32,000 nucleotides of DNA from Thermosulfurimonas dismutans (lineage in GTDB: Bacteria; Desulfobacterota; Thermodesulfobacteria; Thermodesulfobacteriales; Thermodesulfobacteriaceae): assembly GCF_001652585.1 (NCBI RefSeq), contig NZ_LWLG01000003.1, forward strand, positions 30,001 through 62,000, read 5' to 3'. The translations under genes and the position numbers were made by a program. Shown here one piece after another: positions 1,488 to 25,176 of this stretch (position 1 is the stretch's first letter; each line of letters begins with the position of its first letter). A model generated the notes under the pieces. That model saw only the letters and a list, made by a program, of their open reading frames with translations, searched no databases and was not told where the DNA came from.

Positions 1488-2870
1488 ATGGAGAGTGGCA
1501 GGTTTTATTCGGGTAAAAGGGTTGGGCCGATTTTATCGGCGGTGTTTTTACTGGGCTCAGGGATGGCCCTGGCCGGGGACCCCACCGGGGCCGAAACCCT
1601 GAAGTCCGACCCCGGGCTTCCGGTGGACTATGTCTGGGTGTTGGTGTGCGGATTCTTGGTGATGTTCATGCAGGCGGGCTTTGCCTGTGTGGAGGCCGGT
1701 TTCTGCCGGGCCAAGAATGCCACCAATCTCTTAACCAAGAACCTCATGGACTTTGTGGTGGGGGCACTGGTTTTCTGGGCCGTGGGTTATGCCCTGATTA
1801 CCGGCACGGACTGGAAGGGCCTCATCGGGACTTCGGGCTTTTTCCTCTCTGGTGAGGGTTACGATGTCGGCAACTACCTTTCCTTTTTCTGGCAGATGGT
1901 CTTTGCCGCCACGGCGGCGACCATCGTCTCAGGGGCCGTGGCCGAACGTATCAAGTTTCAGGCCTATCTCCTTTATTCCATAGCGATTACCGGTTTCATC
2001 TACCCGGTTTACGCCCACTGGGTCTGGGGCGGGGGTTGGCTTTCAAAACTGGGCTTCGGACTCGGACACCTAGACTTTGCGGGCTCCGGTGTGGTGCATG
2101 CCGTAGGAGGTTTGGTGGGGCTTGCCGGGGCCATCGTTCTCGGGCCGCGTTTTGGAAAGTTCGACAAAAACGGCAAACCCCGGGCCATTCCCGGGCACAA
2201 CATCCCGTTGGCTGCGCTCGGGGTCTTCATCCTCTGGTTTGGCTGGTACGGCTTTAACCCCGGTTCCACCTTTTCTGCCCATCACCTGCGCATCTCGGTG
2301 ATCGCGGTGAATACCACCCTTGCGGCCGCGGCGGCCTCCCTTACAGCCCTTATCCTCGTGCTCGCCAAGACCCGAAAGTTTGATCTCGGTATGGCCCTGA
2401 ACGGCGTGCTTGCTGGCCTGGTGGCCATTACCGCTCCCTGTGCCTGGGTTGAGGCCTGGGCCGCGGTGGTGATCGGTATCGTCGCTGGCATCATCCTTGT
2501 GGCTGGGGTCTATTTCCTTGAGGCTATAAAGGTTGATGACCCGGTGGGAGCCGTCCCGGTACACGGTTTTAACGGCCTATGGGGTCTTATCGCCGTAGGT
2601 CTGTTTGCCGATGGAACTTACGGAAACTACGCCATCGAACCCCCCTTTGTGAAGGGACTCTTCTACGGGGGCGGGGTAGATCAGCTCATCGCCCAGGTGA
2701 TCGGGGCGGTAGCGCTTTTCGTCTGGGCCTTCGGTGCGGGGCTTGTGCTCTTCAAGGTGCTCGATCTCGTAGTCGGCATCCGGGTCTCTCCGAAGGAGGA
2801 GATTCAGGGGCTTGATCTATTTGAACACGGTACCCCGGCTTATCCCGAATTCTATACCGTAAGGAGGTAA
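1488..2870 (+). CDS. amtB: ammonium transporter (Amt family)
   Basis: 460-aa polytopic membrane protein with an N-terminal signal-like segment. Amt signatures are DFAGSGVVHAVGG, WFGWYGFNPGS and VHGFNGLWG. It is immediately followed by a P-II gene. Confidence 0.97.
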   Translation: MESGRFYSGKRVGPILSAVFLLGSGMALAGDPTGAETLKSDPGLPVDYVWVLVCGFLVMFMQAGFACVEAGFCRAKNATNLLTKNLMDFVVGALVFWAVGYALITGTDWKGLIGTSGFFLSGEGYDVGNYLSFFWQMVFAATAATIVSGAVAERIKFQAYLLYSIAITGFIYPVYAHWVWGGGWLSKLGFGLGHLDFAGSGVVHAVGGLVGLAGAIVLGPRFGKFDKNGKPRAIPGHNIPLAALGVFILWFGWYGFNPGSTFSAHHLRISVIAVNTTLAAAAASLTALILVLAKTRKFDLGMALNGVLAGLVAITAPCAWVEAWAAVVIGIVAGIILVAGVYFLEAIKVDDPVGAVPVHGFNGLWGLIAVGLFADGTYGNYAIEPPFVKGLFYGGGVDQLIAQVIGAVALFVWAFGAGLVLFKVLDLVVGIRVSPKEEIQGLDLFEHGTPAYPEFYTVRR

Positions 2871-2874
2871 AACC

Positions 2875-3213
2875 ATGAAGGAAATAAGAGCCATCATCAG
2901 ACCAGAAAAAATGGAGGAGGTTTTGGCGGCTTTGGAAAAGGTGGGCCATCCCGGGGTCACGGTCTATCAGGTGGAGGGTCACGGGCGGCAGGCCGGCCTG
3001 GTGGAACAGTTCCGGGGACGGGAATTCCGGGTGGATCTCTTGCCCAAGATGGAAGTGAGGGTGGTCTGTAAGGACGAAGATGTGGAGAAGATTATGCAGG
3101 CCATCGCTTCGGCGGCCCGCACCGGCGAGATCGGAGACGGAAAGATCTTCGTCTACGAGGTCATCGAGGCCCTTAGGATACGCTCCGGCGAACGGGGAGA
3201 GGCCGCTATTTAA
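2875..3213 (+). CDS. glnK: P-II nitrogen regulatory protein, amtB-linked (GlnK-type), with Phe at T-loop position 51
   Basis: 112 aa with the P-II motifs GxGRQ and TGEIGDGKIF. It starts 4 nt after the amtB stop. The T-loop reads GHGRQAGLVEQFRGREF, so residue 51 is F rather than Y. Confidence 0.93.
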   Translation: MKEIRAIIRPEKMEEVLAALEKVGHPGVTVYQVEGHGRQAGLVEQFRGREFRVDLLPKMEVRVVCKDEDVEKIMQAIASAARTGEIGDGKIFVYEVIEALRIRSGERGEAAI

Positions 3214-3301
3214 ATTTTTTGTTGGACAAATGTTAAAAAATTGTTTAGACTATCAAAATTGAATGTTAAAAAAATAACAAAAATGTAAAGGGAGGTGTAG
3301 G

Positions 3302-4096
3302 ATGGGAGGTGCTAGAAGGATCTGGGTAGTGTTAGGGTTTGTGGTATTCGGGTTATGGCTTCTTGCGGGAGGGGTAAGGGCCGAGGAGGCCAAGCCCTCG
3401 GCGGATTTCACGGTGGATGTGCTCTCGCAGTATGTCTGGCGGGGCTTCGGACTTTCGGACGACTCGGTAGTGATTCAACCCTCGATGACGGTCTCCTACC
3501 TCGGGGCCTATGTGAACCTCTGGGGTAACTATGACACCGACGAGAAGGGTAGTGACGATGCCAACTGGAACGAGACGGATTTCACGTTCGGATATACCTA
3601 CGACAAGTTGCCCTACGGAATGAGTCTGGATGTAGGAGGCATCTATTACGCCCTGGATGGTATCGACGATTCCTTTGAGCTCTTTGCCGGGCTTTCGGCC
3701 ACCTGTCCGAAGACCGGGATCAACTTTGGTCTTACGATTTATCGCGAACTCTCCCACTATCCCGGCACCTGGTATGAGCTCTCGGCCGGGCGGGACTTTG
3801 GGCTACCCTGGTACAAGGCCACTTTGAGCCTCTCGGCCTCGGCCATGTACCTCGACTCCGACGACAAGGGTGCCTATCCCGATCCCGACGATCCTAACGA
3901 TGAGTTTTCCGGCTGGCTCTATCTCCAGCTTGGGGCGGAGGTCAGCGTCCCGGTTGGTCGGTACTTCACCGTGACTCCCAAGGTCTACTACAGTTTTTCC
4001 CTTTCCGACGACGCCGACGATCTCATTGAGGACGGCTCCTGGGACAACCACCACGACCACTTCTTCGGCGGCGTGAGTGTGAGCTTTTCCTTCTAA
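3302..4096 (+). CDS. outer-membrane beta-barrel protein, TorF/Gcw_chp (TIGR02001-like) putative porin
   Basis: It has a signal peptide (WLLAGGVRAEEA). The N-terminal pattern SADFTVDVLSQYVWRGFGLSDDSVVIQPS matches the family start (S..Y.[FW]RG......P..Q). Alternating aromatic/Gly strands are present, and the C-terminus VSVSFSF ends in Phe, as is typical of OMPs. Confidence 0.7.
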   Translation: MGGARRIWVVLGFVVFGLWLLAGGVRAEEAKPSADFTVDVLSQYVWRGFGLSDDSVVIQPSMTVSYLGAYVNLWGNYDTDEKGSDDANWNETDFTFGYTYDKLPYGMSLDVGGIYYALDGIDDSFELFAGLSATCPKTGINFGLTIYRELSHYPGTWYELSAGRDFGLPWYKATLSLSASAMYLDSDDKGAYPDPDDPNDEFSGWLYLQLGAEVSVPVGRYFTVTPKVYYSFSLSDDADDLIEDGSWDNHHDHFFGGVSVSFSF

Positions 4097-4117
4097 GGTA
4101 TTATCCTCGACTCCGAA

Positions 4118-4166
4118 GAAAGGGCCCGGTTTGGTCTTGTAGGCCAAACCGGGCCCTTTCGCTTTA
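4118..4166 (+). terminator. rho-independent terminator candidate downstream of the porin gene
   Basis: There is a perfect 17-bp stem, GAAAGGGCCCGGTTTGG (4118-4134) with CCAAACCGGGCCCTTTC (4144-4160), and a 9-nt loop. It is followed by GCTTTATAAT, a weak T tract. Confidence 0.6.
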
Positions 4167-4179
4167 TAATTCAGCCTTT

Positions 4180-4273
4180 AGGCCGGGGTCGGAATCGAAC
4201 CGGCCAGCTACCCCTATTCTGGGTGCCCACAGGGTTTGCAGCCCCGGGGGAGCACCAGCCCCCTCTCCCGGCC
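4180..4273 (-). tRNA. tRNASec-shaped long-variable-arm tRNA with GCA (Cys) anticodon, no encoded CCA
   Basis: The minus-strand sequence is GGCCGGGAGAGGGGGCTGGTGCTCCCCCGGGGCTGCAAACCCTGTGGGCACCCAGAATAGGGGTAGCTGGCCGGTTCGATTCCGACCCCGGCCT. Acceptor: GGCCGGG pairs with CCCGGCC (7 bp), followed by U (4180) at the discriminator position. D-arm: 6-bp stem GGGGGC/GCTCCC (one G.U) with a 4-nt loop TGGT. Anticodon arm: CGGGG/CCCTG with loop CTGCAAA, giving anticodon GCA. Variable region: about 25 nt, foldable into a stem of roughly 7 bp. T-arm: GCCGG-TTCGATT-CCGAC with one C.A mismatch. An alternative 8/5 reading starts at 4274 (G.U closing pair, discriminator A4179). A TATAAT box on the minus strand (plus-strand coordinates 4285-4290) lies about 11 nt upstream. 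Confidence 0.75.
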
Positions 4274-4387
4274 CCCAGTAGAGAATTATATCTTGTTCAT
4301 TTCTATTACAGAAATAGATTTTAAAAATAAAAAGGGGGGGAGAGATATTGGTGAGTGGAGTAATATTATTAAAGTCGAGGTTTTAAG

Positions 4388-5302
4388 GTGAGAGGACTTT
4401 ACTATTCACTAAATCAATTCCTGAAGGAGAGATTCGGAGAGCGGGTCCAGAAGGTGCCGCTTGATGCGGGGTTCACCTGTCCTAACCGGGACGGTAGCAA
4501 GGGTCGGGGCGGGTGCCTTTATTGTAACGCTTACGGTTCCGGTACCGGTGCTTTCCGGGAAGGGCTTTCGATAAGGGAACAGATGCTCCGCGGCATGGAG
4601 CACATGGCCCGCCGCTACGGTGCCCGGAAGTTCCTGGCCTATTTCCAGGCCTTCTCGAACACCTACGGCCCGCTGGAGGTCCTTCGCGCCCGCTATGAGG
4701 AGGCCCTGGTGGATGAGCGGGTGGTGGGATTCTGTGTCGGAACGCGTCCGGACTGCGTGGATGAGGCTGTGGCCGGCGTTCTTGCGGAGTTCAAGAATCG
4801 AGACCTCATGGTCTGGGTGGAACTCGGGCTCCAGAGCGTGCACAACGAGACCCTTGCCCGTATAAACCGGGGCCATACCTTCGAGGACTTTGTGAAGGCC
4901 CTTGAAGTCTTAAAGGCGCGAGGCCTTCTCGTCTGTGTGCACATCATCTTCGGACTTCCAGGGGAGTGGCATCTTGAGATGCTTGAGACCGTAAAGACGC
5001 TCGCCCGGTTGCCCATTGATGGTATCAAATTTCATGAGCTCTACGTGGTGAGGGGGTCCGGGATGGAGAGACTCTATCGAGAGGGTCGGTATCAGCCTTT
5101 AACCCAGGGGGAATACGCAGATCTCGTGGCCGAGGCCATCGCTCATCTTCCTCCGAAGGTAGTCATTCAGAGGCTTACTGGAGATCCGCGGCCGGAGGAA
5201 CTGGTAGCCCCGGATTGGGCCCGGGACAAAGCCGGCACCCGCCGCCTCATTGAGGAGACCATGTTAAACCGCGGTCTCTATCAGGGGAAGTATCTGGAAT
5301 AG
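4388..5302 (+). CDS. radical SAM protein, TIGR01212 (YhcC-like) family
   Basis: GTG start with GAGG 7 nt upstream. The N-terminal motif FTCPNRDGSKGRGGCLYCN is the atypical Cys cluster of the TIGR01212 family. The size (304 aa) and the C-terminal QRLTGD-type region also fit. Confidence 0.85.
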   Translation: MRGLYYSLNQFLKERFGERVQKVPLDAGFTCPNRDGSKGRGGCLYCNAYGSGTGAFREGLSIREQMLRGMEHMARRYGARKFLAYFQAFSNTYGPLEVLRARYEEALVDERVVGFCVGTRPDCVDEAVAGVLAEFKNRDLMVWVELGLQSVHNETLARINRGHTFEDFVKALEVLKARGLLVCVHIIFGLPGEWHLEMLETVKTLARLPIDGIKFHELYVVRGSGMERLYREGRYQPLTQGEYADLVAEAIAHLPPKVVIQRLTGDPRPEELVAPDWARDKAGTRRLIEETMLNRGLYQGKYLE

Positions 5303-5359
5303 ATTCCTTACCGTCAGCCGCTTGCCGGGATATAGGCTCCGGAATAGAATGGAGGGACT

Positions 5360-6754
5360 ATGAAATGGGATAAAAGGAAAATTCTTGAGATCGATCGGAA
5401 ACATATCTGGCATCCTTTCACCCAGATGAAGGATTACGAAGACCGGGACCCTCCGGTCATCGTGGAAGCCCAGGGGGTGAAATTCCGAACCATAGAGGGT
5501 CGTGAGCTCTACGATACCATCTCCTCCTGGTGGACCAATGTGCACGGGCATCTCCATCCGCTCCTAAATGAGGCTATCCGGGAACAGCTCACCCGACTGG
5601 ATCATGTCAATTTTTCCGGTTTTACGCATCCGTACGCCGTGGAAGTAATCGAGAGACTCCGGAGGTTTCTTCCTCCAGAGCTTTCCCGGTTCTTTTTCTC
5701 GGACAACGGTTCCACTGCGGTGGAGGTGGCCCTCAAGATGGCCTTTCAGTTCTGGCAAAACCGGGGTTTTACCCGCAGGACCCGCTTTGTTTGCCTGGAG
5801 AACGGCTATCACGGAGACACCATTGGGGCCGTGAGCGTGGGTGGGGTGGATCTCTTCTTCAAGCTCTACAAGCCCCTGACCTTTAAGACCTTTCGGGCTC
5901 CGGCGCCTTACTGCTACCGCTGTCCCGAAAATCTCGACCGCAATTTTACACTGGAGGCTTCGAAACCTTCTTGTAATTTTCGATGTCTTGAGGAGTTAGA
6001 GAAAATTTTTAAAGAATATCATGAAGAGATCTGTGCCGTGATCGTGGAGCCCAGGTTGCTGGCAGCCGGAGGTATGATTGTCTATCCCGCCGAATACCTG
6101 CGGGGTTTGATAGAGTTGGCTCGGCGATACGAGGTTCTCACCATCTTCGATGAGGTGGCTACTGGGTTTGGCCGTACCGGCACCATGTTCGCCATGGAAC
6201 AGGCGGGGGTGGTACCGGATATCCTCTGTCTGGCAAAAGGACTTACCGGTGGAGTGCTCCCTATGGCCCTTACAGTGACCACCGAGCGGATCTTCCAGGC
6301 CTTTTACGCTGATTACCTTGAGGGTAAAACCTTTTACCACGGCCATTCCTTTACGGCCAATCCCATCTGTTGCTCGGTGGCCATAGCCAACCTTAAACTC
6401 TTTGAGGATGAAAAGCCCCTGGAGAAGGGTAGGGAGGTCCGGAACTATTTCCATCGGCGTCTCGTGGAACTCTTTTCGGATCGTCCCTATGTGGGAGACA
6501 TCCGCTACCTTGGATACGTGGGGGCCGTGGAACTAGTGGCGGACCGAAAGACCAAGAAACCCTTCCCACCGGAAAAGCGCGTGGGTTTTCGCATCTACAT
6601 GACCTCCCTTGAGAGGGGGCTGGTTCTTCGTCCCCTTGGGGATGTGATCTACTGGTTCCTGCCCCTCTGTGTTACCAAAGAGGAGGTGGAGGAGATCCTC
6701 ACCCAGAGTCTGGCAGTCATTGAGGAAGTGGTCACGGATCTGTCTGCCGGCTAA
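5360..6754 (+). CDS. bioA: adenosylmethionine-8-amino-7-oxononanoate aminotransferase
   Basis: Class-III aminotransferase with a BioA-type N-terminus (HIWHPFTQM, SSWWTNVHGH), FDEVATGFGRTG, and the PLP lysine context LCLAKGLTGG. It sits in the bio cluster. Confidence 0.95.
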   Translation: MKWDKRKILEIDRKHIWHPFTQMKDYEDRDPPVIVEAQGVKFRTIEGRELYDTISSWWTNVHGHLHPLLNEAIREQLTRLDHVNFSGFTHPYAVEVIERLRRFLPPELSRFFFSDNGSTAVEVALKMAFQFWQNRGFTRRTRFVCLENGYHGDTIGAVSVGGVDLFFKLYKPLTFKTFRAPAPYCYRCPENLDRNFTLEASKPSCNFRCLEELEKIFKEYHEEICAVIVEPRLLAAGGMIVYPAEYLRGLIELARRYEVLTIFDEVATGFGRTGTMFAMEQAGVVPDILCLAKGLTGGVLPMALTVTTERIFQAFYADYLEGKTFYHGHSFTANPICCSVAIANLKLFEDEKPLEKGREVRNYFHRRLVELFSDRPYVGDIRYLGYVGAVELVADRKTKKPFPPEKRVGFRIYMTSLERGLVLRPLGDVIYWFLPLCVTKEEVEEILTQSLAVIEEVVTDLSAG

Positions 6755-17460: not shown

Positions 17461-17883
<423 letters not shown>

Positions 17884-17886
17884 GGA

Positions 17887-20295
17887 GTGCTTTCGGAGGT
17901 AGTTTCCGAAAGTTCTGGTCCTCAAAGGGAGCGGTGCCTATATCTGGATCGTTTTGTTAAAGATTTATGGCTTCCCCTTTTCAAAGAGACGGGCACCGTG
18001 GAGGACAATCTTTCGCTGGTGGCCCTTGGGGGTTATGGGGAAGGGCTTCTTTGTCCGGGTTCGGATGTAGATCTCCTTTTTCTGCACCAAGGGCTTTCGG
18101 AAAACATTTTGGCAAGATTCGTAGAAAAGGTGGTCTATCCCCTGTGGGATTATCGTTTCGAGGTCAGCTATCGGGTCTTTACCCCCAGGGAGGCCTTGGA
18201 TTTTGCGGCTGAAGATCCCACTTTTTTCACTTCTCTTCTTTCGGCACGGCTTCTTTGCGGCTCAGAAGCGCTTTTCCAGGAACTCCTGGAAGGATTTGAG
18301 GGGCTTCTTTCTGGCCGGGAAAAGGAGTTCTACGAGAGGCTAAAGGCTTTGAGGGAGGCCCGGCTTTCGCGTTTAGGGGAGGAAGTTTATTTTCTGGAGC
18401 CCCACCTAAAGGATGGGCCTGGCGGTCTTCGGGACTTCCAATTTTTTCTCTGGGCAGGCAGGATCATTTTCGGTTTCGAAAAACTTTCAGATTTTACTGA
18501 GGCCGGTCTCATAAGTTTGGAGGAAGAAAAGAAAATTTTGGCCGCCGCCGAATTTTTGCGACGGGTAAGGGAGGAACTGCATATCCTTTGTGCTCGCAAA
18601 GAGGATCGTCTCTTTATGGAATATCAACCTGAGATCGCGGCCCGTTTGGGGTTCGGATCCGGTGATCGGGCCGGTACCGAAGCCTTCATCTCTAAACTAT
18701 TTACCGCTTTTTCAACTATCAAGGAGGCTGTGGAAAACCTTATTGAGGAAATAGAAGATCTTTTCTTTACCTCGCAAAGAAAGAAACGTCTTACCCTTAT
18801 TCAACCGGTTCCATCCGGGCCTTTTCTTCGCCGTATTTTTGAGACTCTGGCCCGAGAAGGTCGGCCCTTTGATCGCAATCTCAAGCGTTATCTTCGGAGC
18901 CGTAAATGGTCGGAAAAGGATCTGGTGGACCTCCGGGAGGCCTTTTCTGAGCTTCTGACCCTTCCTTATAGTCTTACCATGTTGCACACTATGCGAGAGA
19001 CGGCTATCCTGTTTCGGCTCATACCGGAGTTTAAAGACCTTTGTGGAAGGGTACAGTACGATGTTTACCACTTGTATGCCTTAGATGAACACTTGTTTCT
19101 TACAATCTCGGCCTTGCACCACCTTAAGAAAGAAAAGTCGGAACTTTGGACGTCCATCGAAAATGAGAAGATCCTTTATTTCGCAGCCCTGCTTCACGAT
19201 CTAGCCAAAGGAGAGCCTGATCACGCCCGCCGAGGGGCCGAAAAGGTTCTTAAAATAGCTTCCCGCTTTAATTTTCAAGCCGAAGAAATTAAGGAGATAG
19301 CCTTTCTGGTAGAACAGCATCTTCTGCTGATGGACACGGCCTTGAGAAGGGATCTAGCTGAAGAAAAGGTCATTGAGGAAGTGGTACTTCGGACGGAGAG
19401 GGTCGAAAGGCTTACCGCTCTCTACTTCCTTACTCTTGCGGATGCTATGGCCACCGGGCCTAGGGCTTTGAATGCCTGGAAGGCCGGTCTCCTTGAAGAA
19501 CTTTTCTCAAAGGCCAAAAAGCTGTTTGAAAACCGTATGGAAAGGGAGAGTCTGAAGGATCTTTCTCAAAAGAGGACCAAACTCTATGAAAAGTTTCGAC
19601 CCGAGCTAGTGGATCGCATCCCTTTACCTCAGCTCGAAATTTATGATGTGGGAGAACTCGAAGAATTACTTTCTTTGGTTCAGGGATTTCTTTCCGAGAA
19701 CGCCTTATTTCTTTTTGCGGAGCATCGTCTTAACGGAGTTGTTAAGGTTTTTATCGTAACAAAAGATAAAACTGGCCTTTTTTCTGATATTGTAGGGACT
19801 TTCTTCGCTTCTGGTTTCGACATCCGGAGGGCGCGGGCTTTTACTTGGGCTGGAGGCCTAGCGGTGGACGAATTCTGGGTGGAACCTCTGGTAGAAGGAG
19901 CAGAGCTTTCAAACTGGAAGGGACTGTTTGAAAAGGTCCTTGCTGGCAAGGAGTATACCGAAGACCTTGTGCAGCGGAGAAAGGAAGCCTTTTTGAGACT
20001 GGGCCCTAAGATTCCTTTGGTGTCCTTTCCGGAGATTAGAATTGACCAGGAGGCTTCTGACTTTTATACTCTTTTGGAAATTTATGCTCCAGATAAGCCG
20101 GGTTTACTATATGAGATAGCTTCTATCATTTCAGAACAAAAATTTATAATTGGTAAGGCTATTCTTTCTGAAAAAGAGGATCTAGTGGCCGATATTTTTT
20201 ATCTTCAGACCCAAGAAGGAGAAAAGCTTTCGGCCGAGGAGGTCGAAGGCCTGGTTCAAAAACTCCAAATAAAACTAAAGGAGGTTGTATCATGA
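17887..20295 (+). CDS. glnD: [protein-PII] uridylyltransferase/uridylyl-removing enzyme
   Basis: 802 aa with the nucleotidyltransferase motif [19 protein letters not shown], an HD domain ([10 protein letters not shown]) and two C-terminal ACT-like repeats. GTG start 4 nt after the glnB stop. Confidence 0.92.
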
Positions 20296-21704
20296 CACCC
20301 AAAGAGGTAATGGAATTCGCCAAGAAAAACGGTGTTCGTATGGTTGATCTTAAGTTTCTAGACCTTCCCGGCATTTGGCAGCACTTTACGGTGCCCATCG
20401 AGCAGTTTTCCGAAGAGTCCTTTGAAGAGGGGTTCGGTTTTGACGGTTCCTCTATTCGTGGCTGGCAGGAGATTCATGAAAGCGACATGTTGGTGATCCC
20501 CGATCCCAACACGGCCATCATAGATCCCTTTTTTGAAGTGCCTACTCTTTCTCTGATTTGTAACGTAGTAGATCCTATTACTCGTGAGCCTTATTCTCGT
20601 GATCCGCGCTATGTAGCCCAGAAGGCCGAGGCCTACCTCAAGAGCACCGGTATTGGCGATACGGCCTATTTTGGTCCGGAGGCCGAATTCTTTATCTTTG
20701 ACGATATTCGCTACGACTCTGCGGCCCATTTTGCGTATTATTTCGTGGACTCCATTGAGGGTATCTGGAATACAGGCCGAGAGGAGTGTCCCAACCTGGG
20801 TTACAAACCCCGACACAAAGAGGGCTACTTCCCGGTGCCGCCCTCTGACAAGACTCAGGATCTGCGTACCGAGATGACCCTCTATCTCCAGAAGGTGGGC
20901 ATTGAAGTCGAGTGTCATCACCACGAGGTTGCTACCGGCGGTCAGGCCGAAATTGATATGCGTTTTGCTCCGCTGGTCAAGATGGGAGACAATCTCATGT
21001 GGTTCAAGTATGTCTTGAAGAACGTGGCTTACAAACACGGTAAAACCGTAACCTTTATGCCTAAGCCTCTTTTCGGGGACAACGGCTCTGGTATGCACAC
21101 CCATATGAGTATCTGGAAGGGGGACACCAACGTTTTTGCCGGGGATCGCTATGCCGGACTTTCTGAAACCGCTCTTTACGCTATCGGTGGCATCCTGAAG
21201 CACTGCCGGGCGGTCTGTGCCTTTACCAACCCCACTACCAACTCCTACAAGCGGCTTACTCCTGGTTTTGAGGCCCCGGTGAACCTCTGTTACTCCAGCC
21301 GGAACCGTTCGGCGGCTATTCGTATTCCCATGTATAGCGCCAGCCCCAAGGCCAAACGGATCGAGTTCCGCACTCCGGACCCCTCCTGTAACGGCTACCT
21401 GGCTTTTGCCGCCATGTTGATGGCTGCTCTCGACGGTATCGAAAACCGAATTGATCCGGGAGAGCCCATGGACAAGGACCTTTACAGCCTGCCTCCCGAG
21501 GAGCTCAAGAATATTCCCACCACCCCGGCTACTCTAGAAGAGGCCCTTCAGGCCTTGGAGGAGGATCATGAGTTCTTGATGAAGGGAGATGTCTTTACCG
21601 AAGACCTTATTGAGACCTGGATCAAGTACAAACGGGAAAACGAGGCCGACCAGGTGCGTCTCCGTCCGCATCCCTACGAGTTCTTCCTCTACTTCGATAT
21701 CTAA
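20292..21704 (+). CDS. glnA: glutamine synthetase type I
   Basis: 470 aa with GS-I motifs [27 protein letters not shown] and [10 protein letters not shown]. The adenylylation-loop-like sequence [10 protein letters not shown] is present. The ATG overlaps the glnD stop (ATGA). Confidence 0.97.
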
Positions 21705-23845: not shown

Positions 23846-24271
23846 ATGGAGCGCACGTTATCGCTTATTAAGCCGGATGGAGTTTCACGTAATTTAATAG
23901 GAGAAGTGATCCGCTTTTTCGAGAAAGCTGGCCTGAAAGTCGTAGCCCTGAAAATGCTCCGTTTGACCAAAGAAGAGGCCAAACAGTTTTACATTGTCCA
24001 CAAAGAAAGGCCCTTTTATGACAGTCTCACAGATTACATGTCTTCCGGGCCCATTGTGGCCATGGTACTCGAGGGCGAGAATGCTATCGCCCGTTGCCGG
24101 GAAATTATGGGGGCCACCGATCCCGCTGAGGCCGCGGAAGGCACCATTCGAAAAACCTTTGGGCTTGACAAGGAAAAGAATACCGTTCATGGCTCGGATA
24201 GTCCTGAATCCGCAGCCCGTGAAATCGCTTTCTTTTTCAGCGAGCTAGATCTCATTTCTGGTACTAGATGA
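23846..24271 (+). CDS. ndk: nucleoside diphosphate kinase
   Basis: [13 protein letters not shown], the active-site sequence NTVHGSDS, 141 aa, and a strong RBS AAGGAGG. Confidence 0.97.
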
Positions 24272-25176
24272 GAGAATCCGAGTTTTTGCTTCGCATAAGG
24301 CCTTACCTTTACGAAAAAGAAGGCCTGGTCAGTAGTGCAGATGAGGATTGTGCGGTAATCGCCGAGGGCCAGGCCTTCAGGCTCTATACCGTAGACGCTC
24401 TGGTCGAGGATATTCATTTTAAGTGGTCCTATTTTACTCCTTACGCCTTAGGCTTTAAGCTAGCGGCCGTAAATTTAAGCGATATCGCGGCTATGGGAGG
24501 CATTCCGGAATGGGCCCTTCTTACGTTAGGCTTTCCGGAGCCTCCCAGGGGAGATTTTATAGAAGGATTTTATCGTGGGCTCGTCGAGGGGCTTTCACGT
24601 TTCGGGGCTAGGCTGGTTGGCGGCGATACGGTAAGGAGTCCCGTTTTTTGGGCCGCCCTTTTTCTTTCTGGTCGGACCGAAAATCCTATCCTGAGGAAAG
24701 GGGCCAGCCCCGGGGACCTTATTTATGTTTCTCGTTCCCTAGGGGCCTCGGCCGCGGCCCTGAGATACTTCCTTTCCGGAGAGGAACCTCCGGAATTCCT
24801 CAGGAAGGCCCATCTCTTCCCAGAACCGGAGATCTCCTTGGGGCGGCTTCTCTCTGAAAAGGCTCTAGCTTCGGCGATGATGGATGTGTCTGATGGACTG
24901 CTTCTTGACCTTTCAAAACTTTGCCGGACAAGCGAAGTAGGGGCCGAAATCGAGGAGGTCCCGGTAGCACCAGGGGCAACCGAGGAGGAAGCTCTCTCTG
25001 GAGGCGAAGATTACGCCCTAATTTTCACCGTCCCCAAGGAGAAAGAGAGATTCCTCTTAGAGAGCGTGGACCGGCCCCTTTACCGTTTAGGAAAAATTAT
25101 TTCCCAGAAAGAAAAAATATATCTTTACGGACGGCCCGTCGCTCCCGAAGGTTTCGATCACTTCGAGCTGGGCTAA
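24268..25176 (+). CDS. thiL: thiamine-monophosphate kinase
   Basis: AIR-synthase-related fold with ThiL motifs: [38 protein letters not shown]. The start overlaps the ndk stop (ATGA). Confidence 0.9.

Follow-up and report, generated by a model that had tools for sequence, protein, structure and literature searches.

The stretch of DNA analysed here, referred to as the window, comprises 32,000 nucleotides of a contig of Thermosulfurimonas dismutans (NZ_LWLG01000003.1, positions 30,001 to 62,000). On its minus strand, at 4180-4273, it carries a real and conserved gene for a rare cysteine tRNA that is built on the scaffold of a selenocysteine (Sec) tRNA, tRNASec. This tRNA belongs to a published class, described in 2017-2018 as selC* tRNACys or tRNAReC; tRNAReC is said to be credited to a 2018 article by Vargas-Rodriguez in RNA Biol. 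As a whole, the observations are best explained by a functional gene for a tRNA of the tRNAReC type in T. dismutans, a reading which we hold with a little more confidence than doubt. The gene confirms the class in a phylum from which it had already been reported, and the only points added to the known picture are the 7/5 architecture of the acceptor/T branch and the loss of the selenium-gene context.

Read from its 5′ end, the tRNA consists of GGCCGGG-AGA-GGGGGC-UGGU-GCUCCC-C-CGGGG-CUGCAAA-CCCUG, the variable region of 25 nt, and GCCGG-UUCGAUU-CCGAC-CCCGGCC-U, and is followed by AAAGG. Its G+C content is 72%. A first-pass annotation, made from the sequence without database searches, had described a 6-bp D stem with a 4-nt loop, a variable region of about 25 nt, an anticodon loop CTGCAAA giving GCA, and a U at the discriminator position of a 7-bp acceptor reading. 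All four features are present: the D stem with its loop at 4263-4248, the variable region at 4229-4205 with a length of exactly 25 nt, the GCA anticodon, on which both Rfam and ARAGORN at a relaxed threshold agree, and the U at 4180. The anticodon arm has a 5-bp stem (CGGGG/CCCUG) and a 26.44 mismatch. The acceptor stem starts with G1:C72 and lacks a G3:U70 pair, and since the discriminator U is followed by AAA, no CCA is encoded. U73 together with GCA forms the identity set of cysteinyl-tRNA synthetase (CysRS) (PMC5389517). The central claim of the first-pass annotation, a tRNASec-shaped tRNA with cysteine (Cys) identity elements, is thus upheld by GCA, U73 and G1:C72 and by a score of 53.3 bits with the Rfam tRNA-Sec model (RF01852).

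With this score, against a gathering score of 47 (E = 3.1e-08), the gene matched the full model (positions 1-91), and RF01852 was the only Rfam family at or above its gathering score in the 32-kb window. The covariance-model comparison, which had been proposed in the first-pass annotation as a check, also placed the anticodon where it was expected, as the Rfam alignment sets GCA at the anticodon position of tRNASec. ARAGORN, proposed for the same purpose, gave a divided result: at default settings no tRNA was reported in the window, but at a relaxed threshold a tRNA-Cys(gca) was called, with the acceptor stem mis-set 2 nt too far 5′. A pattern made up of the D-loop, anticodon-loop and T-loop motifs matched once in the window and in none of 100 shuffled sequences. 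The minimum free energy (MFE) fold of the single, very G+C-rich sequence showed no cloverleaf in the anticodon and variable regions, and its z-score was only -1.0; the 7/5 cloverleaf was calculated at -46.4 kcal/mol versus -49.4 kcal/mol for the MFE fold. At such a G+C content these folding values carry no information about the cloverleaf. Standard tRNA finders can overlook or mislabel this gene.

A homologous tRNA is encoded by a metagenome-assembled genome (MAG; L110, GCA_054044485.1) whose MnmL protein is 86% identical. It occupies the equivalent position and is likewise divergent from mnmL. In an alignment of both tRNAs (A1) the D arm as well as the 5′ strand and the loop of the anticodon arm are identical, and the discriminator is U73 in both. 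Two differences are compensatory: G2:C71 of the window is replaced by A2:U71 in L110, and the variable-arm helix is re-paired (GCACCC/GGGU-A-GC in the window, GCUUCU/AGAGGC in L110). The T-stem mismatch C50.A64 of the window corresponds to U50:A64 in L110, which gives L110 a perfect 5-bp T stem. Furthermore, position 9 is an A in L110, removing the G9:C65 pair of the Rfam alignment. Because of these compensatory changes, U50:A64 and A9 in L110, the acceptor/T branch is, as read from the two sequences, of the 7/5 (12 bp) type. The first-pass annotation had noted the C.A mismatch and an unpaired A next to the acceptor stem, and both exist. Its suggestion of an 8/4 or 8/5 branch did not hold: A9 and the perfect 5-bp T stem of L110 led to rejection of the reading with a bulged 8-bp acceptor and a 4-bp T stem that underlies the Rfam alignment (G9:C65), which at -43.1 kcal/mol is also less stable than the 7/5 cloverleaf. 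An eighth acceptor pair G-1:U73 was also rejected, position -1 being C in L110.

The downstream flanks of the two tRNA genes are unrelated, but upstream a block is kept (TATTTCWGTAATAGA ... ATATAMT, at about 4285-4316 of the window), which is common to the window, L110 and a further genome, L104. Within this block lies a -10-like box. A consensus promoter scan did not call the box because the -35 region is weak. Contigs of MAGs with an 89% identical MnmL (L104:1-95, L105:1-95, L109:1-48) start just upstream of mnmL and are uninformative about presence or absence of the tRNA; L104 starts within the conserved promoter block, just short of the place expected for the tRNA. Such contig starts suggest that assemblies break at the very G+C-rich tRNA or at a repeat.

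For a survey of relatives the pattern TGGT-N12-CTGCAAA-N20-45-GGTTCGANTCC was scanned over 185,579 species genomes, yielding 102 loci. In metagenomes, which were covered by two scans, a pattern specific for the Thermosulfurimonas type had no match. A relaxed pattern had 20 matches there, comprising 17 of a Peptococcaceae type, none of the Thermosulfurimonas type and three unrelated, shorter tRNA-like sequences (L113, L126, L120). Acceptor and T stems of the relatives were parsed in fixed registers, and pairs were counted. A 7/5 subgroup, defined by a 3-nt linker, a 6-bp D stem and U73, extends beyond Thermosulfurimonas to Gemmataceae and other Planctomycetota, Actinomycetota, Terriglobia, Dehalococcoidia, Elusimicrobia and Ca. 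Vecturithrix, and all its members score as tRNA-Sec in Rfam. In an alignment of 11 sequences of this subgroup (A2), whose members were chosen for their fit to the 7/5 register, 97.2% of the cells of the 7/5 cloverleaf are paired and 18 of 23 pairs, among them five of the six D-stem pairs, changed on both sides. The covariation score of 0.734 compares with 0.20 for shuffles and with no more than 0.19 for slid registers. G1:C72 and the anticodon GCA are invariant, U73 occurs in ten of the 11 sequences, and pair 50:64 is U:A in eight. Across the subgroup, column 8 is unpaired with its T-stem partner column, and columns 80:96 are paired in all 11. The Peptococcaceae type is built differently: in all 23 distinct sequences the acceptor stem measures 8 bp, with an eighth pair that covaries (A:U in 16, G:C in seven), the linker is a single nucleotide and the D stem has 5 bp; U73 is present and CCA is encoded. 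CCA is encoded in most of the relatives surveyed.

Further tRNASec-like types with GCA came to light in this survey. Cloacimonadota have a type in which G is the discriminator, CCA is encoded and pair 1:72 is apparently mismatched (C.A or A.G; acceptor register parsed by eye). It occurs in L002, L007, L011, L014, L019, L039, L049, L060, L061, L076, L080, L082, L083, L090, L092, L094, L096, L097 and L099 and seems closer to a tRNASec that carries a Cys anticodon than to a tRNACys. Actinomycetota have shorter tRNASec-like tRNAs with GCA and U73 in a genomic setting unlike that in anaerobes. One such gene, in Jatrophihabitantaceae (L066:2229-6620), lies within an array of 22 further tRNA genes near RtcB, and a type in Actinoplanes that looks 8/4 (L069:54-212, L003, L032, L093) is located beside an ordinary tRNA. 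An identical tRNA-like sequence with a CUGCAAA loop, a variable region of medium length and a U after the 7-bp acceptor stem is present in a Clostridium MAG (L006:1160-1218) and a Bacteroides MAG (L023:1123-1181).

Within the available flanking DNA, matches to YedE, YedF, TusA-like, SelD or SclA-like proteins were detected near the tRNA at 40 of 111 loci. At 31 of the 111, the match was no more than 1.5 kb away, mostly immediately downstream and on the same strand. In the Peptococcaceae type the tRNA is followed by yedE after a gap of about 25 nt (L111, L119, L084, L101, L079, L008, L070), and in the Nitrospirota type by yedF (L086, L044, L058, L102, L045, L063). The 7/5 subgroup is represented as well. 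In Ca. Vecturithrix (L100:700-5777) the order is yedE, tusA-like, a gene for a cysteine desulfurase or SclA-like protein (2330-3502), the tRNA (3798-3891), yedF (3971-4567) and selD (4731-5777), whose active site contains an in-frame UGA (TTAAG*AAK); elsewhere in the subgroup the tRNA precedes yedE (L010) or follows yedF (L081). All five complete selD genes near such tRNAs (L100, L071, L095, L042, L056) have UGA at the catalytic Cys/Sec position; therefore, SelD itself is a selenoprotein in these organisms. Neither yedE nor yedF is mentioned in the main text of Mukai 2017 (PMC5389517), and the 2018 tRNAReC paper may cover the link.

The class was introduced as selC* tRNACys (Mukai 2017), tRNASec-like molecules that carry U73 and either GCA or UCA as their anticodon, from anaerobes of Firmicutes, Thermodesulfobacteria, Nitrospirae and Proteobacteria that always possess the full Sec apparatus (PMC5389517). 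The arrangement differs from phylum to phylum, and in some delta-proteobacteria selB* and cysS* lie downstream (PMC5389517); because of these differences between phyla, an 8-bp acceptor or 8/4 branch may not strictly define the class. Under the later name tRNAReC (PMC11415595, PMC13582414) a working definition asks for a length of 80 nt or more, discriminator U and either GCA or UCA as the anticodon (PMC13582414), and the window tRNA with 94 nt, GCA and U73 falls within it. The GCA tRNA of Desulfotomaculum nigrificans is charged with Cys, decodes UGA as Cys and is delivered by SelB but not used by EF-Tu, a combination reported for this species alone (PMC11415595, PMC13582414). Both the GCA and the UCA type recode UGA with a downstream selenocysteine insertion sequence (SECIS) as Cys, and the division of work between tRNASec and tRNAReC is still unclear (PMC11415595, PMC13582414). 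The first-pass annotation had referred to tRNASec-like tRNACys species from anaerobic bacteria, in agreement with the published class (PMC5389517), but had called their function unresolved, which does not match the SelB-dependent Cys recoding reported for D. nigrificans. For T. dismutans a MccSep gene of the UGA type, accompanied by a SECIS-like element, has been reported (PMC13510729), which speaks for a tRNAReC and indirectly for a Sec apparatus in this genome. The genome paper counts 48 tRNA genes, which cover all 20 amino acids, and leaves Sec unmentioned (PMC4911364). The T. dismutans copy or the 7/5 form may already stand in the supplementary lists of the 2017 and 2018 papers.

As a tRNAReC gene, the locus would be transcribed from its own promoter, with TATAAT 11 nt upstream of the tRNA. 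The transcript would be trimmed and its CCA added by the CCA-adding enzyme, and U73 and GCA would allow CysRS to charge it with cysteine. By analogy to the tRNAReC of D. nigrificans, SelB might then take the Cys-tRNA to UGA-SECIS sites of selenoprotein mRNAs, where Cys would be inserted in place of Sec. Such insertion may provide a selenium-independent back-up. Its use would be clearest where SelD is a selenoprotein, because no Sec is made without SelD, an idea that agrees with the presence of UGA-containing selD genes next to relatives of the tRNA.

Several observations weigh against this proposal. The 7/5 branch of 12 bp contrasts with the 8-bp acceptor stem of all 23 Peptococcaceae-type sequences, the family to which the tested D. 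nigrificans tRNA belongs. A GCA anticodon can read UGA only via a G.A wobble mismatch. Among the 11 members of the subgroup alignment, the window tRNA alone is unpaired at 50:64. Neither the L110 locus nor the window has a yedE, yedF, TusA-like, selD or SclA-like neighbour, and, as stated in the first-pass annotation, the window contains no selA, selB or selD. Finally, the region upstream of mnmL contained no tRNA in either T. marina (L103) or a relative with 80% identity (L106), and the pattern scan did not reveal a copy in T. marina either. As far as the sequence shows, the window tRNA may be carried by SelB or by EF-Tu. In E. coli, branch length reportedly decides between SelB and EF-Tu, a result of 1991 attributed to Baron and Bock.

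The 12-bp 7/5 branch is the main doubt, and an EF-Tu-dependent extra tRNACys is therefore the leading rival explanation, although we consider it rather unlikely. The tRNA would then be a Cys isoacceptor, charged by CysRS and reading UGC and UGU, either as a minor extra or, less likely, as the sole tRNACys. The 7/5 geometry, backed by the ortholog and by covariation, is in line with such a role, and GCA is cognate for UGY codons. Moreover, in E. coli EF-Tu makes use of tRNASec-like allo-tRNAs with 12-bp branches (PMC5389517), and no selB-like or selenium gene adjoins the window tRNA. Nevertheless, an ordinary isoacceptor leaves unexplained why tRNASec-like D and variable arms persist and covary across phyla and why 7/5 relatives are found beside yedE, yedF and UGA-containing selD. 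The patchy presence within Thermosulfurimonas speaks against a housekeeping role, and C50.A64 lies in a T-stem region that is generally known to tune the affinity for EF-Tu. A related idea, to which we give slightly less credence still, is that the 7/5 form with its 3-nt linker represents a distinct tRNAReC-like lineage working differently from the SelB-dependent D. nigrificans type, being compatible with EF-Tu or used by a SelB that does not measure 13 bp; in T. dismutans the gene would, in addition, have parted from the yedE/yedF/selD neighbourhood that surrounds it in other organisms.

It appears improbable that the tRNAReC gene is a decaying or idle copy that drifts after loss of its selenium-gene context. 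The mismatch unique to the window tRNA within the subgroup, its solitary position without yedE, yedF, selD or selB neighbours and the failure to find a T. marina copy, by pattern scan or upstream of mnmL, could be taken as signs of decay. Every other helix is intact, however, the differences from L110 are compensatory and not disruptive, conservation extends to the -10 box and the upstream block, and one C.A mismatch need not kill the function of a tRNA with 72% G+C.

Even less probable is a tRNASec variant with a sense anticodon, which would be charged by seryl-tRNA synthetase (SerRS), converted from Ser to Sec by SelA and used to insert Sec at selected UGC or UGU codons. The tRNASec-like D arm and the long variable arm would be accounted for, a tRNASec with GCA does exist, for example in Aeromonas salmonicida (PMC11415595), and some tRNASec-like tRNAs with U73 have been proposed as Ser acceptors (PMC5389517). 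This is opposed by the CysRS identity set already mentioned (PMC5389517), by the working definition of SelC, which demands discriminator G or A (PMC13582414), and by a branch that is 7/5 and not the bacterial 8/5. A tRNA-like RNA without a role in translation, serving SelB, SelA or CysRS as decoy or sensor or influencing mnmL in cis, would suit the place beside mnmL conserved in two genomes and, as a leader element, the tRNAs that in other phyla immediately precede yedE or yedF in the same orientation, but a complete cloverleaf with standard T and anticodon loops, the CCA encoded in most relatives and the translation activity shown for class members make it the least credible of all.

Taken as a tRNAReC gene, the locus is of interest since tRNAs of this type blur the decoding of Cys and Sec: where they are present, the UGA of a selenoprotein gene may stand for Cys, with consequences for the prediction of selenoproteomes. 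T. dismutans is a cultured thermophile with a reported UGA-type selenoprotein gene, and because its copy has a branch of canonical length, it is a clean test case provided by nature for the question whether, in this class too, the choice between SelB and EF-Tu still depends on branch length.

The genomic context given in the first-pass annotation, between an ammonium-uptake unit and a radical-SAM/biotin unit, was confirmed; positions of the tRNA, its parts and its nearest neighbours are compiled in the table below. One side carries amtB and glnK together with a nifE-like gene and a gene for a TorF-like porin, the other side mnmL/ytqA followed by bioA, bioF, bioG, bioC, bioD, bioB, ppsA and topA; glnB, glnD, glnA, ndk, thiL and glycosyltransferase genes are located farther away. 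Apart from the tRNA, the window has the make-up of an ordinary chromosome. The mnmL product is 100% identical over 304 residues to a protein of Thermosulfurimonas dismutans. The hairpin at 4118-4160 lies 20 nt past the 3′ end of the tRNA and is likely the terminator for one or both of the convergent transcripts. An open reading frame of the AIR-synthase family (24268-25176) was considered as selD and rejected; it encodes ThiL (TIGR01379, 231.6 bits), and the selD model gave 58.3 bits with a cutoff of 125. A scan of the window for selenoprotein genes with in-frame TGA returned coincidental frame continuations only.

The divergent pair of tRNA and mnmL with a conserved intergenic block is seen in both tRNA-bearing genomes (window 4274-4387 and 4388-5302; L110:3893-4918). 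MnmL belongs to the mnm5s2U34 pathway, and the nucleoside mnm5s2U34 is the precursor of 2-selenouridine; a link of the adjacency to the 2-selenouridine pathway may be coincidence. Genes for nitrogen regulation are dense in the window (nifE/nifD-like 1-1242, amtB-glnK 1488-3213, a second PII gene with glnD and glnA 17545-21704); according to the genome paper of T. dismutans, N2 fixation was not tested (PMC4911364).

Table. Coordinates of the tRNA gene, its structural parts and adjacent features in the window
Feature	Position	Strand	Basis
tRNA gene, 94 nt including discriminator U73 at 4180	4180..4273	-	sequence, Rfam RF01852, L110 ortholog, relaxed ARAGORN
Acceptor stem, 7 bp	GGCCGGG 4273-4267 with CCCGGCC 4187-4181	-	sequence
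Acceptor/D linker AGA, 3 nt	4266-4264	-	sequence; unpaired purines
D arm GGGGGC-UGGU-GCUCCC, 6-bp stem with one G.U, 4-nt loop UGGU	4248..4263	-	sequence
Anticodon GCA	4237..4239, within loop CUGCAAA 4241-4235	-	Rfam alignment, ARAGORN, alignment A2
Variable region, 25 nt, 6-bp helix GCACCC/GGGU-A-GC with one bulged A, loop AGAAUAG	4205..4229	-	sequence
T arm GCCGG-UUCGAUU-CCGAC, 5-bp stem with C50.A64 mismatch (4203/4189)	4188..4204	-	sequence
TATAAT, -10-like box, 11 nt upstream of G1	4285..4290	-	sequence; part of conserved block
Hairpin, 20 pairs (12 G-C)	4118..4160	called on +	between tRNA 3′ end and stop codon of porin-like gene
mnmL/ytqA, tRNA-modification radical SAM protein, divergent from tRNA	4388..5302	+	TIGR01212, 366.7 bits
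TorF/Gcw_chp-like putative porin, convergent with tRNA, last in amtB-glnK unit	3302..4096	+	similarity to TorF/Gcw_chp

Compared with known systems, the window tRNA shares GCA, U73, G1:C72 and a 7/5 branch with canonical bacterial tRNACys(GCA). That tRNA is a class I molecule with a 4-bp D stem, a D loop of 7-11 nt and a variable loop of 4-5 nt, which is found by standard tRNA finders, whereas the window tRNA has 94 nt, a D arm of 6 bp and 4 nt and a variable region of 25 nt and was missed by ARAGORN at default settings. With bacterial tRNASec (selC, RF01852), whose gathering score it passes, it has in common the 6-bp D stem with 4-nt loop, the long variable arm and the anticodon loop CUNCAAA, one base away from CUUCAAA. 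It differs from tRNASec in GCA instead of UCA, U73 instead of G, a 7/5 (12 bp) instead of an 8/5 (13 bp) branch and a 5-bp anticodon stem with the 26.44 mismatch instead of 6 bp.

The tRNASec(GCA) of Aeromonas salmonicida is a Ser-to-Sec tRNA with G73-type identity. It resembles the window tRNA in combining a tRNASec scaffold with GCA, but it reads targeted UGC codons as Sec (PMC11415595), whereas the identity elements of the window tRNA point to Cys. The allo-tRNAs are similar in their tRNASec-like D arm and 12-bp acceptor branch, a branch compatible with EF-Tu in E. coli; they have 8/4 or 9/3 branches, Ser or Ala identity and varied anticodons, in contrast to the 7/5 branch and Cys identity found here (PMC5389517).

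Closest is tRNAReC itself. The extended 8-bp acceptor or 8/4 branch of the reported tRNAReC forms is replaced in the window by 7/5: the Peptococcaceae type has a 1-nt linker and a 5-bp D stem along with its 8-bp acceptor, compared with 3 nt and 6 bp here, and the form reviewed from delta-proteobacteria has a bulged 8/4 branch. The window tRNA also lacks an encoded CCA, carries C50.A64 and is not adjacent to selB*, cysS*, yedE, yedF or selD. In common with tRNAReC it is recognised by the covariance model for tRNASec and has a tRNASec-like body, in which a long D stem closed by a tetraloop is combined with a long variable arm; U73, GCA, G1:C72 and a length above 80 nt are shared as well. The host, too, corresponds: it is an anaerobe reported to use Sec, and the Thermodesulfobacteria are among the phyla listed for the class.

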